A stretch of 32,000 nucleotides of DNA, from positions 2,340,001 through 2,372,000 of the forward strand of contig JAIZWK010000001.1 of assembly GCA_021498095.1 (NCBI GenBank). The letters are read 5' to 3'. Positions 3,772-31,886 of the stretch are shown here, in pieces. Position 1 is the first letter of the stretch. Each line of letters starts with the position of its first letter. The DNA is from Candidatus Harpocratesius repetitus (GTDB lineage: Archaea; Asgardarchaeota; Lokiarchaeia; Sigyniarchaeales; Promethearchaeaceae). The translations under genes were made by a program, and so were the position numbers. The notes beneath the pieces were generated by a model. That model did no database searches. It was not told the DNA's origin and worked only from the letters and a program-made list of their open reading frames with translations.

Positions 3772-4863
3772 ATGTCCCTCACACGATATATCATTACAAA
3801 AGCCGATTTTACTCAGCTACTTACTCATTTAATCGATAGAAAATACGTGTCTGAAATTCTTTCAGGCAAAGAAAAGAGAAATCGTTATGCAATTGTTCCC
3901 GAATTTGTTTCGGATCCAAAAGAATTAGAGAATTTTCCATTAAGTCAATTACTTACATATGGATATGCACGTACTGATTCTGCTTCAAATACCATCTTAC
4001 ACTCTAAAAAAGCTCTTGATACTACAGTGGCAGTCGTAGCTCGCGCTTGTGATATTCGCGCCATGGTGGAATTGGATAAGAAAAATCAGTTAAATTGGGA
4101 AAACTTGTTCTTAATTGGATTTCATGATTTGGGATATATTCCAAATGCAGTTTTGAAAAAATGGTTCAAAAAGGAAGAAATTGATGAGTCAACCATTGTG
4201 AACGAAAGATTGACAGAAAAGGAATTTGTTCTTACTTTTTCAGATGGATCGATGAAGAAAGAACCGCTATCAAAAACATTTAATATAGCGAGTAATTGTT
4301 CTCGATGCATTGAAAAAAGCCATCCTTTAGCAGACTTTTTATTAGGTAACTATGGTGTTCCTGAGAATGACGAAACTTATGTGTTAACACCTCAATCAGA
4401 TAGAGCGAAAAAAATTATTAAAGAACTGAATTGGGAAAATAAAGCTGCTGATGAAAAAACCAATGAAAAATACGAAAAAACTGCCCAAAATGTAATAGAA
4501 AATTGTTCAATTAAGCGTGAGAGTGATTTAGATGAATTCTTAAACAATGAAGATCGATTCTCCTTATTAACCAAATGTACAGGATGTGGAATATGTGTTA
4601 AATCATGTCCTGTTTGTTTTTGTGTTGTATGCAATTTAACAGCACAAGTTAAAGCAAAAACTATGGACCCAGTAATGTTTATTACCACACGTTTTACACA
4701 TGTCGGTGATACATGCGTAGAATGTGGTAGATGTACGACTAATTGCCCAATGCATATTCCTTTAGATTTAGTTTTTCAATCTCTGCGCCGAAAATTCAAA
4801 AAAGAACGGGGTTATGCTGCTGGTGCAGATCGTAATCAAAAAGTCCTTCATTTGGATGTATGA
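3772..4863 (+). CDS. FdhB/FrhB-family Fe-S protein with C-terminal 2x[4Fe-4S] domain
   Basis: VAVVARACDIRAMVELDKKNQLN, NCSRC, ADFLLGNYG, CTGCGICVKSCPVCFCVVC and CVECGRCTTNCPMHIPL match FdhB architecture. Alternative GTG start at 3754. Confidence 0.75.
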   Translation: MSLTRYIITKADFTQLLTHLIDRKYVSEILSGKEKRNRYAIVPEFVSDPKELENFPLSQLLTYGYARTDSASNTILHSKKALDTTVAVVARACDIRAMVELDKKNQLNWENLFLIGFHDLGYIPNAVLKKWFKKEEIDESTIVNERLTEKEFVLTFSDGSMKKEPLSKTFNIASNCSRCIEKSHPLADFLLGNYGVPENDETYVLTPQSDRAKKIIKELNWENKAADEKTNEKYEKTAQNVIENCSIKRESDLDEFLNNEDRFSLLTKCTGCGICVKSCPVCFCVVCNLTAQVKAKTMDPVMFITTRFTHVGDTCVECGRCTTNCPMHIPLDLVFQSLRRKFKKERGYAAGADRNQKVLHLDV

Positions 4864-5086
4864 TGAGAGAATCATCTTTTTATTACTTAATACTCTTTTT
4901 TTTATTAATTATCAATTAATTAATTGATTTTGTTTTTAATTCTGTATATTTATTTTAATTGAAGATTTGTCTTTCTAAACTTGCTGAGATACGTAAAAAA
5001 ATCGATATTTTGGTTTTAAAATTGATTATCTGTAATTTCTATGTAAAAATCGAAAACTTTTTTTGACTTTTTAAATACTCTTTCAT

Positions 5087-5464
5087 ATGGCTAAGAAGAA
5101 AACTTCCAGTCCGAAAGCTAAAAAAACGACTACAGCAAAAAAAACTACTAGAGGTAAAAAAGCTACTAAAAGTAAAAAACCAACAACAGCTAAATCACCT
5201 GCAAAATCCAAATCAAAAAAAGATAAAATTCCTGAAGATGAATTCGATGATGAAGAAGATGGACCTGAATTCATCGAAGAAGATTTAGATGAATTAGATG
5301 ATGAAATGCTCGCAGATGATAGCGATGTAAAACCTCGATCAGATGATGAAATTTTGAATATGTTACGAGATGTTGAATGCGCTGATTGTGAAGGTTCATC
5401 CAGTCGAGATCGTTGTAAAGTACGAGATCAATACGGATGTCCTCCAGATAAAGCCGATCTCTAA
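5087..5464 (+). CDS. Hypothetical small protein: Lys-rich N-terminus, acidic middle, Cys4 C-terminus
   Basis: Coherent composition blocks and C-x2-C-x8-C-x7-C. T-rich tract after the stop. The antisense ORF is a shadow. Confidence 0.8.
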   Translation: MAKKKTSSPKAKKTTTAKKTTRGKKATKSKKPTTAKSPAKSKSKKDKIPEDEFDDEEDGPEFIEEDLDELDDEMLADDSDVKPRSDDEILNMLRDVECADCEGSSSRDRCKVRDQYGCPPDKADL

Positions 5465-28529: not shown

Positions 28530-29804
28530 TTATTCTTTTTGATTTTCTTCGTATATTTTTCCTTCTAATTCAAAAGATCCATGAGAACCACAAAATGGAC
28601 AACCTTTTAATTTTAATTCTTCAATTGTGGAAATTTCTGAATTAACTCCAACTAAAATTGACTTTTTACAGGATTTGCAAAAATAACTCCGGTTTGAAGG
28701 GGAAATTTCTCCAGTATAAATCGGTTTTGTCCATATTTCATCTGCTTTAACAAATTTTAAAATATTTTTTACTTGTTGTGAATCTTCAGCAACTAATGAA
28801 TTTAGTTTTCTTGAAGCTTTTTTTAGTATTAATGTTTGTTTTGTTGTAACTAGACGATATAATTGAGTAATATTGCCAAATATTTGTGCTCCTTCGTAAT
28901 AATTAAAACGAGGATATATTTCAGCAATGACTAAACCCCATTTTGTGAATAATTCTTGCATTTGTAACATTTCTTCAGGACTTCGGTGAGCAAATGATAA
29001 ATATATTTCTCTACCCGAATTTGGATTTAATAATTCTATAGCGCGAGATATAACTAGTTGTAATCCTGAAATTGAATAAGGAGGGTCAACTATAACTGTA
29101 TCAAATTGTTGAAGGAACTTTAAAGGTATCGGGTTGCGGTAATCCCAATGAAATGTAACAAATTCTGGTGAATCCCACTTACTCTGATTTTTTATATCTT
29201 GCAAAAGACGATCATCAATATCAAAAACGATTATTTGATTTGGAATTAAATGGGGTTCTTCTGGAAAAAAACCACGATATAATTCACTTACTGCAATTGA
29301 AGTATAATCATCATCCCCAAGAAAACAGATTTTTTTACCTTCTAAAGCACCATTACGATAAAGTAGAAGAGCTCTTTGAAGTGAGGTTTCTGCGTCTGCA
29401 AATGCTTGATCTAGTTGAGTATTTACTACAGGTCGTTTTGCAAATATTTCATTTAAATATTCAAGTAATGGTTCCCATCTAGGAGATATCCAGATTGGAA
29501 GACTATCGCATTCATCACATTCACTAATTCCATATCCATAAAAATGCAATTCGCGTTCAATAAATTGCATCCCTTTTTCTGTATATAAGATTCCTTCAGG
29601 TATTCGATCTAAGATTTCCTTATCAATTAAAAAATTGATTACTTTTGAAAGGACTGGAATTGGTATTTTTGTTTGATAGGCTAAATCTTGAAGAGAAATA
29701 TGACCTGCACGGTAGATCTCACGCAATATTAATCGATGCCCTTCTATTCCTTCTCTAATCTGGACCTTTTCTTGCAATTGAAATAAAAATTCCATAAAAA
29801 TCAC
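28530..29804 (-). CDS. bpsA: BpsA/DUF43-family aminopropyltransferase (branched-chain polyamine synthase-like) with N-terminal wHTH and C-terminal Zn ribbon
   Basis: LDQAF, LEGKKICFLGDDD, VFDIDDRLL, DPPY. C-terminal CKSC...CPFCG. Confidence 0.72.
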   Translation of the reverse strand: MIFMEFLFQLQEKVQIREGIEGHRLILREIYRAGHISLQDLAYQTKIPIPVLSKVINFLIDKEILDRIPEGILYTEKGMQFIERELHFYGYGISECDECDSLPIWISPRWEPLLEYLNEIFAKRPVVNTQLDQAFADAETSLQRALLLYRNGALEGKKICFLGDDDYTSIAVSELYRGFFPEEPHLIPNQIIVFDIDDRLLQDIKNQSKWDSPEFVTFHWDYRNPIPLKFLQQFDTVIVDPPYSISGLQLVISRAIELLNPNSGREIYLSFAHRSPEEMLQMQELFTKWGLVIAEIYPRFNYYEGAQIFGNITQLYRLVTTKQTLILKKASRKLNSLVAEDSQQVKNILKFVKADEIWTKPIYTGEISPSNRSYFCKSCKKSILVGVNSEISTIEELKLKGCPFCGSHGSFELEGKIYEENQKE

Positions 29805-29908: not shown

Positions 29909-30268
29909 CTAAACTGGGTTAAATACCTTTAACCTTGAACTACTTGTAATTCTTTTAATTTTTCCTTCAGCTTCTAAATCTAATAAGAATTTCTTCATTG
30001 TCGAAACTCGAACTTCATATTTACTTGCTAATTCATTTGCTGTAATTGCTTTCATTTTTAAAATATCTTTTCGTAATTTCTTTTCTAAAGCTAAAGGAAG
30101 ATATGGATCACGTTGGATTGTTTCTAAAGTAGCCACTTTTCCGTATTTCTTATTCATTTTTCGAACTTGGGTTTCAGCTTGGACTTTATTGATCTTATCA
30201 TCATCCATAACTAAATCTTCGGATTCTTCTTGTTCTTCTTCCGAATCAATTTTTTTCTTCTTTGCCAT
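29909..30268 (-). CDS. rps25e: Small-subunit ribosomal protein eS25 (S25e)
   Basis: KDILKMKAITANELASKYEVRVSTMKKFLLDLEAEGKIKRI...SRLKVF winged helix. Start 30268. Confidence 0.88.
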   Translation of the reverse strand: MAKKKKIDSEEEQEESEDLVMDDDKINKVQAETQVRKMNKKYGKVATLETIQRDPYLPLALEKKLRKDILKMKAITANELASKYEVRVSTMKKFLLDLEAEGKIKRITSSSRLKVFNPV

Positions 30269-30484
30269 CGTACAACACATCAAATATGGTATTTATATCT
30301 ATGAAGGCTCAATGTTGCATAATTAAAAAATTTTGGCTTTTCTCAGCAAAATATTACTCATTTGATGAATTATGTGCATCTAATTCATCAGTAATAAATG
30401 GAAAGGAAGACTAATTATCTTAATAATAAATGAAAGAAAATATGTTTAATCTTAAGACTTTCAATTAATTGGAGAATTGATTTA

Positions 30485-31138
30485 ATGGGGAAAAATCGGC
30501 AAGAACAGAAAAAGAAAGCTTATGAGTTTTTTATAAAACATCAGCGACCAGAAGAATTTGCTAAAGATCCCCTCATTTATTATACTCCAGAACGAGTAAA
30601 AGAGTATGCTGAATCTAAGTCTTTAATGCGAATTCAAGAAGGAATTACTAAAAGGTGCGTTGAATTAGTTCATGCTGCGCCACCTGCACTTTTTTTGGAT
30701 ATTGGGATGGGATGTGGATTTGCATCGGTATTCTTAAATTTAAAAGGATTTAGAACAATAGGATTGGATATAAATCGTTTCTTCCTTTCTTATTATTCCT
30801 TACCTGAATTAAATTCAATACAAGCAGATATGCGGGAATTTAGATTACGTCCTCGCTCTATAGACTTTATTATTTCGATTTCTGCGGTTCAATGGATTTT
30901 GGCTGAATCAGATGAACAAAAACGCCGACAATATCTTAAAGATTTCAGTCAATTTTGTGCAGAAATTTTAAAACCTCAAGGAAAATTAATTTTTCAATTT
31001 TATCCCAAATCAGATGAAGCCATGATGGAATTAGGACACGAATTTAAAGAAATAGGTGCATTCGAAGGAAATTTTGTGATTGATAATCCGGAAAACCCCA
31101 AAAAAAGACGAATTTTCTTACTTCTTGATAGATTATAG
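30485..31138 (+). CDS. Bud23/WBSCR22-like class I SAM methyltransferase (paralogue 1)
   Basis: RPEE..YY...Y, RIQ, LDIGMGCG, ISISAVQW, QFYPKS, VIDNPENPKKRRIFLLL follow yeast Bud23 motifs as recalled. Confidence 0.8.
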   Translation: MGKNRQEQKKKAYEFFIKHQRPEEFAKDPLIYYTPERVKEYAESKSLMRIQEGITKRCVELVHAAPPALFLDIGMGCGFASVFLNLKGFRTIGLDINRFFLSYYSLPELNSIQADMREFRLRPRSIDFIISISAVQWILAESDEQKRRQYLKDFSQFCAEILKPQGKLIFQFYPKSDEAMMELGHEFKEIGAFEGNFVIDNPENPKKRRIFLLLDRL

Positions 31139-31175
31139 AAAAAATTTGCTGATAGAGAGATGGAGAAAAAAAAAC

Positions 31176-31886
31176 ATGGTGAAGAAAAAGACAAAAAAAA
31201 GATTAAAAAAAAAAAAACCTATCAGCAAAAATAATCGACCTATGATCCATGAATATTTTGGCTTAGATGCTGAAGCATATGCTCATTCACAGTGGATGGA
31301 ACGAAATCAGAGAAAAACAACTCTGAAAGCCATTGAATTATTAAATACTTCACCGTACTTTGAAATGGAATATAATTCTGAAACAAAAAAAGAAGAAATA
31401 GGAGATTCATACATTGAATCTAAATTATGTCTGGATTTAGGATGCGGTTCTGGGTTTTCGAGTTTAGAATTAATTCATTTCTTTTCGCGGGTCATTGGTT
31501 TGGATTTTTCAAGAGATATGATTAAATTTATTCCTAATAATAATTCTCTTCATTTAGTTCAAGCAGATCTACGGGCTCTACCATTTCGCTCCAATCTTTT
31601 CTCTACGGTTATATCAATTTCTGCATATAATTTTGTGAGTGAAGGTGCTAAAAATAAAAATCAAATTAATCGACAGATTTACCAAGCTTTTAAAGATCTC
31701 ATTTATTGTATTGGTGATTTAGGCAAAATTGTAATTGAATTTTATCCCACTCCCTTAGAAGAAGAAATCTTTTTTCAAGTTTTAAAAAAATTCCCCATAC
31801 AAGGTGGAATGTTAAAAACAGATCCTGGAACACGTAAAGAAAAAAAATTTTTACTATTGCGAAAAATTTCATCAGATCTCGATTAA
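31176..31886 (+). CDS. Bud23-like class I SAM methyltransferase (paralogue 2, more divergent)
   Basis: LDLGCGSGFS, GLDFSRDM, QADLRALPFR, ISISAYNF, EFYP, DPGTRKEKKFLLL. Start 31176 with GGAG upstream. Confidence 0.72.
   Translation: MVKKKTKKRLKKKKPISKNNRPMIHEYFGLDAEAYAHSQWMERNQRKTTLKAIELLNTSPYFEMEYNSETKKEEIGDSYIESKLCLDLGCGSGFSSLELIHFFSRVIGLDFSRDMIKFIPNNNSLHLVQADLRALPFRSNLFSTVISISAYNFVSEGAKNKNQINRQIYQAFKDLIYCIGDLGKIVIEFYPTPLEEEIFFQVLKKFPIQGGMLKTDPGTRKEKKFLLLRKISSDLD

Follow-up and report, generated by a model that had tools for sequence, protein, structure and literature searches.

Two Bud23-family methyltransferases encoded between the eS25 and uS10 genes of a Lokiarchaeial genome

Gene layout

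We analysed a stretch of 32,000 nucleotides (the window) that spans positions 2340001-2372000 of the closed 4,361,485-bp genome of Candidatus Harpocratesius repetitus, in which two adjacent genes for S-adenosylmethionine (SAM)-dependent methyltransferases, here called MT1 and MT2, lie between the single-copy genes of the ribosomal proteins eS25 and uS10. MT1 (30485-31138, forward strand) encodes a Bud23-type class I SAM methyltransferase of 217 amino acids, and MT2 (31176-31886, forward strand) a second Bud23-family paralogue of 236 amino acids counted from its ATG; the genome holds just these two members of the family. Bud23 (BUD23-WBSCR22), together with Trm112 (TRMT112), is the 18S rRNA (guanine1575/1639-N7)-methyltransferase (KEGG K19306; PDB 4QTT/4QTU, 6G4W and 7WTN-7WTW).

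The eS25 gene, rps25e (29909-30268, reverse strand; PF03297 Ribosomal_S25, 4.6e-10, 40.1 bits against a cut-off of 28.8), gives one tblastn match in the genome and is transcribed divergently from MT1. An earlier note on this DNA, made from its letters, had placed the three reading frames and described eS25 as the head-to-head neighbour of the methyltransferases; both points stand, except that rps25e starts at the ATG at 30268 and not at the upstream TTG at 30283. The 216-bp, AT-rich spacer between rps25e and MT1 (30269-30484) presumably carries the putative promoters of both genes. MT1 and MT2 are separated by 37 nt, with a GGAG 10 nt 5' of the MT2 ATG, and MT2 is followed by a 285-nt spacer with a T-run and then by the uS10 gene, rps10 (G000:C1:2372171-2372476, or L040:6172-6477; PF00338, 1.5e-24), which begins 171 nt past the end of the window and is the only copy in the genome. 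In archaea, rps10 usually follows the EF-1alpha gene.

Membership of the Bud23 family

In phmmer searches of the PDB, the best match of MT1 (residues 20-214) was yeast Bud23 (4qtt_B, residues 2-199) with an E-value of 9.7e-25; human BUD23 matched at 3e-17, and the first chain that is not a Bud23 at 3.6e-5. Bud23 was also the best match of MT2 (4.6e-15, with the first non-Bud23 chain at 4.5e-8), of a second member of the MT2 clade (3.3e-19 among solved structures) and of a DPANN member of the family (4.6e-21). The alignment of MT1 with yeast Bud23 takes in the N-terminal helices and the C-terminal hairpin, which lie outside the generic methyltransferase domain, and in this HMMER alignment we found each of the motif pairs quoted in the earlier note: RPEE, IQ, ISISAVQW/ISISAIQW, QFYPKS/QFYPKN and the C-terminal VIDNPENPKKRR/VVDDPESKKNKK. 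Both proteins have the class I core, in which motif I is of the GxGxG kind and strand 2 ends with an acidic residue (LDIGMGCG...GLDIN in MT1, LDLGCGSG...GLDFS in MT2), and they are about 27% identical to each other.

When MT1 was searched with phmmer against 1.84 billion representative proteins, 498 matched at E<=1e-3. These are archaeal short forms of about 190-240 amino acids and eukaryotic long forms of 250-340 amino acids, the latter ending in the Bud23 C-terminal motif. The earlier note had asked for a comparison with generic Methyltransf_11 proteins, and a profile built from the short forms separates the two kinds, with family members at 147 bits or more and generic methyltransferases at 75 bits or less; the other methyltransferases of the genome are distant from the family (E>=5e-9). 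Since only 498 of 1.84 billion proteins match and the profile scores are separated by this gap, the resemblance of MT1 to Bud23 is far beyond chance. Neither MT1 nor MT2 matches PF12589, the WBS_methylT C-terminal extension of Bud23, whereas the eukaryote-type representatives P0256, P0307 and P0257 do, and the eukaryotic C-terminal domain was found in none of the archaeal members inspected; the claim that both copies lack the extension is thus borne out.

The predicted folds agree with the sequence matches. AlphaFold2 (AF2) models made from the family alignments have a predicted local distance difference test (pLDDT) score of 89.4 for MT1 and 88.9 for MT2, and both show the seven-strand topology. 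In Foldseek searches of the PDB the top eight matches of each model are all Bud23, with 4.6e-19, a target-normalised TM-score (TMt) of 0.90 and a root-mean-square deviation of 2.1 Å for MT1, and with 5.0e-17 and a TMt of 0.85-0.87 for MT2. The next match is at 4.7e-10 (TM about 0.6) for MT1 and, for MT2, is Trm11 at 3.4e-11, which leaves a gap of 6-9 log units of E-value between Bud23 and the next fold (TM about 0.4-0.6). By sequence, by fold and by the tree described below, MT1 and MT2 are members of the Bud23 family.

These proteins are usually annotated as class I SAM-dependent methyltransferases, because Pfam matches MT1 and MT2 to the generic Methyltransf_11/25 only and the NCBIfam matches remain below their cut-offs. 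Taken at face value, the Pfam result and the weak matches to the BioC and UbiE models of NCBIfam would make them generic small-molecule methyltransferases, with a likeness to Bud23 that goes no further than the Rossmann fold. We give this explanation practically no weight: the best NCBIfam model for the methyltransferases of the locus, BioC, scores 36.7 bits against a cut-off of 184.95 and all others are far below theirs, the match to Bud23 extends over the N-terminal helices and the C-terminal hairpin beyond the generic domain, and there is a clear gap in score and fold to all other methyltransferases. A UbiE/BioC-type identity is effectively refuted by the phmmer matches, the family size, the profile gap and the Foldseek results.

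Conserved motifs and the predicted rRNA target

The segments ISISAxQW, after strand 4, and QFYP, at strand 5, are common to eukaryotes, the MT1 clade, the DPANN members and the Odinarchaeial members of the family, and the N-terminal RPE is common to all of these except the Odinarchaeial members. MT1 retains all family motifs (RPEE, ISISAVQW, QFYPKS and a C-terminal DNPxxPKKR block). In MT2, NNRP, ISISAYNF and EFYP stand in place of RPE, ISISAxQW and QFYP, and the N-terminal tail is lysine-rich, so that the basic tail and the SAYNF attributed to this copy are both there. The MT2 clade is characterised by SxWMxRNQ, ISISAxNF and EFYP, but its motif I, its ADx motif and the acidic residue that follows strand 2 are intact. 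Because the RPE, ISISAxQW and QFYP motifs are changed, MT2 is, as judged from its sequence, a divergent sister type and not a typical family member.

In class I methyltransferases, the positions after strand 4 and at strand 5 line the substrate pocket. As the motifs kept in MT1 and changed in MT2 sit at these positions, we read MT1, by inference, as the functional counterpart of Bud23, while MT2 is probably an active enzyme with a different target.

The guanine predicted as the target of MT1 is the second G of the GGAAUCCCUAG segment of the 16S rRNA, and the universal segment GGAAUCCCUAGUAAU that holds it is conserved in both 16S genes of the genome. The two copies, at G000:C1:725879 and 2305421, show no difference within the 100 nt inspected around this guanine.

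The Trm112 partner

The search for a Trm112 gene, proposed as one check of a Bud23-type activity, was successful: a gene at G000:C1:3304901-3305521 (L003:1042-1662) encodes a Trm112 of 206 amino acids (PF03966, 2.8e-12), and each of 41 genomes of the window's order has a Trm112. The two halves of its zinc knuckle, CPxD...CxxC, are split by an insert of about 140 residues, which has no sequence match to the helical domain of eukaryotic Trm112. A profile of the Trm112 proteins of the order matches Archaeoglobus fulgidus Trm112 (7.7e-7) and human TRMT112 (1.2e-3).

We also modelled the complex of MT1 with Trm112, with both partners given as alignments. The model reached an ipSAE of 0.93 (three runs) against 0.01 for the best of three controls, a mark that is also reached by 58 of 80 solved complexes and by 2 of 110 mismatched pairs; since a solved Bud23-Trm112 structure (4QTT) exists, this pass shows likeness and not binding. 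Contact agreement between the runs was at least 98%, and the partner pLDDT was 93. The modelled interface is formed by MT1 residues 110-115 and 118-122 and Trm112 residues 5-12 and 175-182, with a beta-zipper between strand 3 of MT1 (110-115) and the C-terminal strand of Trm112 (175-182), as in known Trm112 complexes. An MT1-Trm112 holoenzyme is plausible. We considered whether the long Trm112 form and Bud23-type genes occur together as a specific link and rejected this, as the long form is also present in families that lack such genes.

Gene neighbourhoods in related genomes

The families mentioned in the following are those of GTDB and carry our own codes: f1 is the family of the window, and f1, f31, f2 and f32 all belong to its order. 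A conserved linkage to rps25e had been named as the point on which a functional module would stand or fall, and the linkage is conserved. The rps25e gene is divergently adjacent to an MT1-type gene in 28 of the 29 other genomes with enough flanking sequence (3 f1 and 25 f2 loci), over a range of 43-76% identity for MT1 and 31-88% for eS25, and the spacer in these 28 divergent loci measures about 150-380 bp. In the exception, an f1 genome (G165), the order is MT1-MT2-uS10-eS25-BpsA on one strand, so that the genes remain linked.

The MT2-type gene, for its part, keeps company with rps10. In f1 it is directly followed by rps10 (in the genome studied here and in L011, L014 and L046), and in f2, where it lies at a separate locus from the MT1-type gene, rps10 follows within 1.3-3.6 kb in five of five loci examined. 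The MT1-MT2 tandem is a feature of f1: both genes are present in all six other f1 genomes of one survey and are adjacent in each f1 locus examined, and in Lokiarchaeum ossiferum the pair is NEF87_000157/000158. Promethearchaeum syntrophicum MK-D1 appears to have the tandem too, and the two genes are neighbours in the closed genomes G312 and G307. In f2, a gene for a radical-SAM protein of about 375 amino acids (PF04055, Fer4_12) lies between the MT2-type gene and rps10 where this was checked (L047:3066-4202, reverse strand; L050:4505-5626, forward strand).

In Odinarchaeia a single Bud23-type gene is found head-to-head with a stand-alone rps7 (PF00177, 5.9e-44) in three of the three genomes that have the gene (L042:4058-4660, reverse strand, and 4812-5399, forward strand, for the gene pair; also L041 and L043). 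The proteins eS25, uS10 and uS7 all belong to the head of the small ribosomal subunit. Three head-protein neighbours in three clades are hard to explain without a small-subunit function, and on the basis of this conserved context we regard the link of the family to the small-subunit head as well supported. The tail of eS25 extends to uS13 beside the P-site tRNA in Saccharolobus and contacts the P-site tRNA itself in humans (PMC11698992).

The conserved adjacency to ribosomal protein genes might also mean that the enzymes methylate the neighbouring proteins (eS25, uS10) and not rRNA, the more so as protein methyltransferases such as Mtq2 are among the partners of Trm112 (PMC6144793). We hold this to be very improbable: the closest characterised relatives in sequence and fold are RNA guanine-N7 methyltransferases, and the neighbour varies between eS25, uS10 and uS7 while the motifs of the enzyme are constant, which is better accounted for by a shared region of the rRNA.

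The DPANN members have other neighbours. Their Bud23-type genes (L052:4001-4696, L053:4001-4651 and L055:4001-4582) adjoin genes of aminoacyl-tRNA synthetases and not ribosomal protein genes, a setting that is compatible with a role in translation at large but does not point to the small-subunit head in particular. One of the DPANN genes shares 4 nt with the end of a class Ib synthetase gene, and in L055 a second small methyltransferase is encoded about 1.1 kb upstream of the Bud23-type gene.

Proposed function

With family membership, fold, neighbourhoods, the presence of Trm112 and the in-silico complex shown above, we infer the substrate, the N7 chemistry and the timing as follows. MT1 would pair with the Trm112 of the genome through the usual beta-zipper, and the holoenzyme, with SAM as methyl donor, would methylate the N7 position of a guanine that is conserved universally in the P-site ridge of 16S rRNA and corresponds to yeast G1575 and E. 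coli G1338. Its substrate particle would be a late pre-30S or a mature 30S. MT1 would work without the C-terminal extension, which is tied to nucleolar 40S assembly in eukaryotes. MT2, which keeps the SAM-binding residues, shows QW changed to NF after strand 4 and QFYP to EFYP at strand 5 and would have another target, for which a further nucleotide of the small-subunit head is the most plausible candidate. N7-methylguanosine (m7G) as the product of MT1 is a strong prediction, and the account as a whole, with m7G made by MT1-Trm112 at the P-site guanine of 16S rRNA and another target for MT2, is the one that we favour, with modest confidence.

As in Bud23, the class I fold of MT1 and MT2 extends over the entire catalytic domain (TMt 0.90 for MT1 and 0.85 for MT2), MT1 has RPE, SxxMxxIQ, ISISAxQW, QFYP and a basic C-terminal hairpin, and Trm112 is predicted to bind MT1 through a beta-zipper on strand 3. 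Unlike in eukaryotes, the WBS_methylT extension (PF12589) and a nucleolar context are missing, there are two paralogues instead of one, with changed motifs in MT2 (NF, EFYP and WMxRNQ), and the archaeal genes are linked to ribosomal protein genes. The archaeal Trm112 holoenzymes Hvo_0019-Trm112 of Haloferax volcanii (PDB 6F5Z) and Trm11-Trm112 of Archaeoglobus fulgidus (PDB 6ZXW) likewise employ Trm112 as the shared activator of class I methyltransferases of the translation apparatus, but their methyltransferases are not of the Bud23 type (Foldseek 1e-9 to 1e-11, TM about 0.4-0.55), and the Trm112 described here has 206 amino acids with the long insert in the zinc knuckle. METTL5-TRMT112 is another Trm112-dependent base methyltransferase of small-subunit rRNA and is accepted as common to archaea and eukaryotes (PMC8481954), but METTL5 differs in methyltransferase family, nucleotide and chemistry (N6-methyladenosine), and nearly all archaea have it, in contrast to the patchy Bud23-type family.

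Several points weigh against the proposed rRNA target. Homology and neighbourhood are the only grounds for assigning the substrate of MT1; for archaeal 16S rRNA there is no report of m7G at the G1338-equivalent position (PMC6144793, PMC5372719), and our literature search turned up no Asgard rRNA modification data. The score of the MT1-Trm112 model may reflect likeness to the solved complex and not binding by this copy. The presence of Trm112 is unspecific, because several methyltransferases share this protein as their hub and because several Asgard families without Bud23-type genes have full-length matches to its long form. The DPANN neighbourhoods are of a different kind, and the genomes compared for synteny are kin (two families of one order, plus Odinarchaeia), so that the number of independent observations is small.

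Some of these points would also fit an explanation in which MT1 and MT2 are Bud23-like in fold and descent but the archaeal target is different, namely another rRNA nucleotide, a tRNA or another atom, with the eukaryotic specificity acquired later. The reviews report no m7G at the site in the archaeal 16S rRNAs analysed (PMC6144793, PMC5372719), DPANN members adjoin synthetase genes, MT2 shows that the catalytic-loop motifs of the family can change, and the Trm112 partners of archaea and eukaryotes include tRNA enzymes (PMC6144793). However, MT1 retains every motif that it has in common with Bud23 of eukaryotes, those after strand 4 and at strand 5 among them, three lineages keep the gene beside that of a small-subunit head protein, and none of the archaea with analysed rRNA (Haloferax, Sulfolobus and Thermococcales) is among the carriers found here. 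We therefore consider a different target of MT1 unlikely, if worth keeping in mind.

If the methylation of the P-site guanine by MT1 is true, m7G in Asgard 16S rRNA would mean that a further "eukaryote-only" step of ribosome maturation also takes place in archaea, and the predicted mark is testable in cultured Asgard strains. The altered catalytic loop of MT2 points to a modification of rRNA or another RNA that nobody has looked for.

Distribution

According to Bourgeois et al. 2017 and van Tran et al. 2018, from the research group of the archaeal Trm112 holoenzymes, archaea have no protein with significant likeness to Bud23, and their counterpart of the nucleotide is not known as modified (PMC5372719, PMC6144793). 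Bud23 is absent from the main text of two surveys of archaeal ribosome biogenesis factors, one of them Birikmen et al. 2021 (PMC8481954), whose supplements, as far as accessible, list it as a query factor only. In the literature searched we found no paper that joins Bud23 with Asgard, Lokiarchaeota or eukaryogenesis, and in the automatic annotation of JGI some archaeal members bear the name that KEGG gives to Bud23. Although the reviews deny an archaeal homologue of Bud23, archaea clearly have the family.

To map the family in the Asgard phylum, 400 genomes were searched with the family profile. A cut-off of E<=1e-8 was too loose, as it matched generic methyltransferases in 398 of the 400 genomes, and presence was therefore read from the best E-values, which are bimodal (1e-45 or below in genomes with a member, 9e-25 or above in the others). 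Members were found in 12 of 13 genomes of the window's own family f1, in 1 of 1 of f31, 125 of 135 of f2 and 4 of 4 of f32, all of the window's order, in 2 of 3 of f4, which belongs to the same class, in 3 of 4 of the Odinarchaeial family f5 and in the single genome of f20 (1/1). The 26 other Asgard families had no member in 238 genomes (best E>=9e-25), and Heimdallarchaeia must be among the Asgard families searched. Outside Asgard, the family is carried by 11 of 301 sampled genomes of the DPANN phylum to which the Pacearchaeota genome belongs. The idea that the family is an Asgard speciality has to be given up, given its presence in DPANN and the 0/238 count. The family is archaeal but patchy, and it is nearly universal only in the order that holds the cultured Asgard strains.

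The named short forms in the database come from Promethearchaeota/Lokiarchaeota, Odinarchaeota (including Odinarchaeum yellowstonii), Micrarchaeota, Pacearchaeota, Diapherotrites and Nanoarchaeota, names that are the labels of the submitters. Thor-, Heimdall- and Hermodarchaeota labels on proteins of the MT1 and MT2 clades probably stand for genomes of the window's order in the GTDB scheme; such a placement is established for P0186 alone, labelled "Promethearchaeia" and assigned to f2, with which the proteins that carry these labels cluster tightly. The nearest database relatives of the proteins of the locus carry the labels Promethearchaeota or Lokiarchaeota, and the closest named one is a "Candidatus Harpocratesius sp." protein with 84% identity to MT2.

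Some MT1-type genes of f2 and f1 have a single in-frame stop (TGA, TAA or TAG) within the profile match (G183:C32:124994-125596, G117:C82:2568-3173, G159:C133:5719-6324, G261:C90:365-970 and G306:C491:2308-2898). These could be pseudogenes, assembly errors or strain variants.

Phylogeny and origin

A FastTree phylogeny of 157 representatives, with three methyltransferases of the same genome as outgroup, placed the MT1 clade as sister to the eukaryotes (Shimodaira-Hasegawa support 92), with the MT2 clade basal. A more careful tree (IQ-TREE, LG+C20+F+G4 with posterior mean site frequencies (PMSF), 81 rows, unrooted) recovered the eukaryotes as one clade (100/100) on a long stem, with no archaeal sequence inside. 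In this tree the MT2 clade is supported at 100/96 and the MT1 clade at 100/97, the latter nested with DPANN clades in a group at 96/95, an Odin-type group stands separately, and the eukaryotes lie, weakly, beside the MT2 clade (64/45). In approximately unbiased (AU) tests, the grouping of eukaryotes with MT1 was not rejected (p 0.265), and MT1 and MT2 as one clade, as expected from a Loki-specific duplication, was disfavoured but not rejected (p 0.092). When six distant outgroups were added, four fell outside the family and two long branches joined Odin-type rows inside it, so that the outgroups were not monophyletic. In both outgroup-rooted trees the eukaryotes fall within archaeal diversity, with an unstable root, and because of this instability we rely on the unrooted careful tree.

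The earlier note had described the two genes as tandem paralogues. They are in tandem in f1, but the local duplication that this suggests does not hold: with about 27% identity, two deep clades and separate loci in f2, MT1 and MT2 are, on this evidence, ancient paralogues and not a recent tandem duplicate. MT1 appears as the protein most like yeast Bud23, and a sister rank to the eukaryotes is favoured by FastTree but not by the careful tree. As the trees stand, all deep branches of the family except that of eukaryotic Bud23 are archaeal, and an archaeal origin of the family before or beside the eukaryotes is supported by the sequences compared.

The distribution and parts of the tree might instead be the outcome of ancient horizontal transfer, from a eukaryote or stem eukaryote or by exchange between DPANN and Asgard archaea, with little bearing on eukaryogenesis. 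The patchiness (0/238 genomes in 26 Asgard families, 11/301 in one DPANN phylum), the position of the MT1 clade among DPANN sequences (96/95), which suggests transfer between archaea, and the weak position of the eukaryotic clade (64/45; AU p 0.265) all lean in this direction. The eukaryotes, on the other hand, form one clade with a long stem and no archaeal sequence within, the archaeal sequences make up several deep clades, the archaeal members inspected are without the eukaryotic C-terminal domain, and the eukaryotes lie inside archaeal diversity in both outgroup-rooted trees, for all the instability of the root. We judge transfer as the source of the archaeal genes to be quite improbable.

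The title idea of the earlier note, an Asgard precursor of eukaryotic 40S maturation, may hold, but the trees do not single out an Asgard clade as the source, with the eukaryotes weakly beside MT2 and their union with MT1 not rejected. We put forward, tentatively and with somewhat less conviction than the function proposed above, that Bud23-type methylation of the P-site guanine predates the eukaryotes: a minimal Bud23-Trm112 would be present in Lokiarchaeia, Odinarchaeia and some DPANN, MT2 would make a second, novel modification elsewhere in the head in Lokiarchaeia, and eukaryotic Bud23 would be a branch that later gained the C-terminal extension and a role in assembly. The patchy distribution and the weak placement of the eukaryotes warn against a simple Asgard-to-eukaryote inheritance.

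Other features of the locus

The N-terminus of eS25 (30200-30268, reverse strand) reads M-A-K-K-K-K and continues with an acidic run. It is without the two glycines with which, as reported in PMC11698992, archaeal eS25 proteins conservedly begin their N-terminal region, and the tail may therefore be more eukaryote-like, to judge from these residues. Downstream of rps25e lies a gene with a BpsA_C domain (28530-29795, reverse strand; PF01861 at 7.2e-43), whose product has an N-terminal winged-helix domain and a C-terminal Cys-rich ribbon; its adjacency to rps25e is retained in f1 (L011-L013 and L046) and not in the f2 loci examined.

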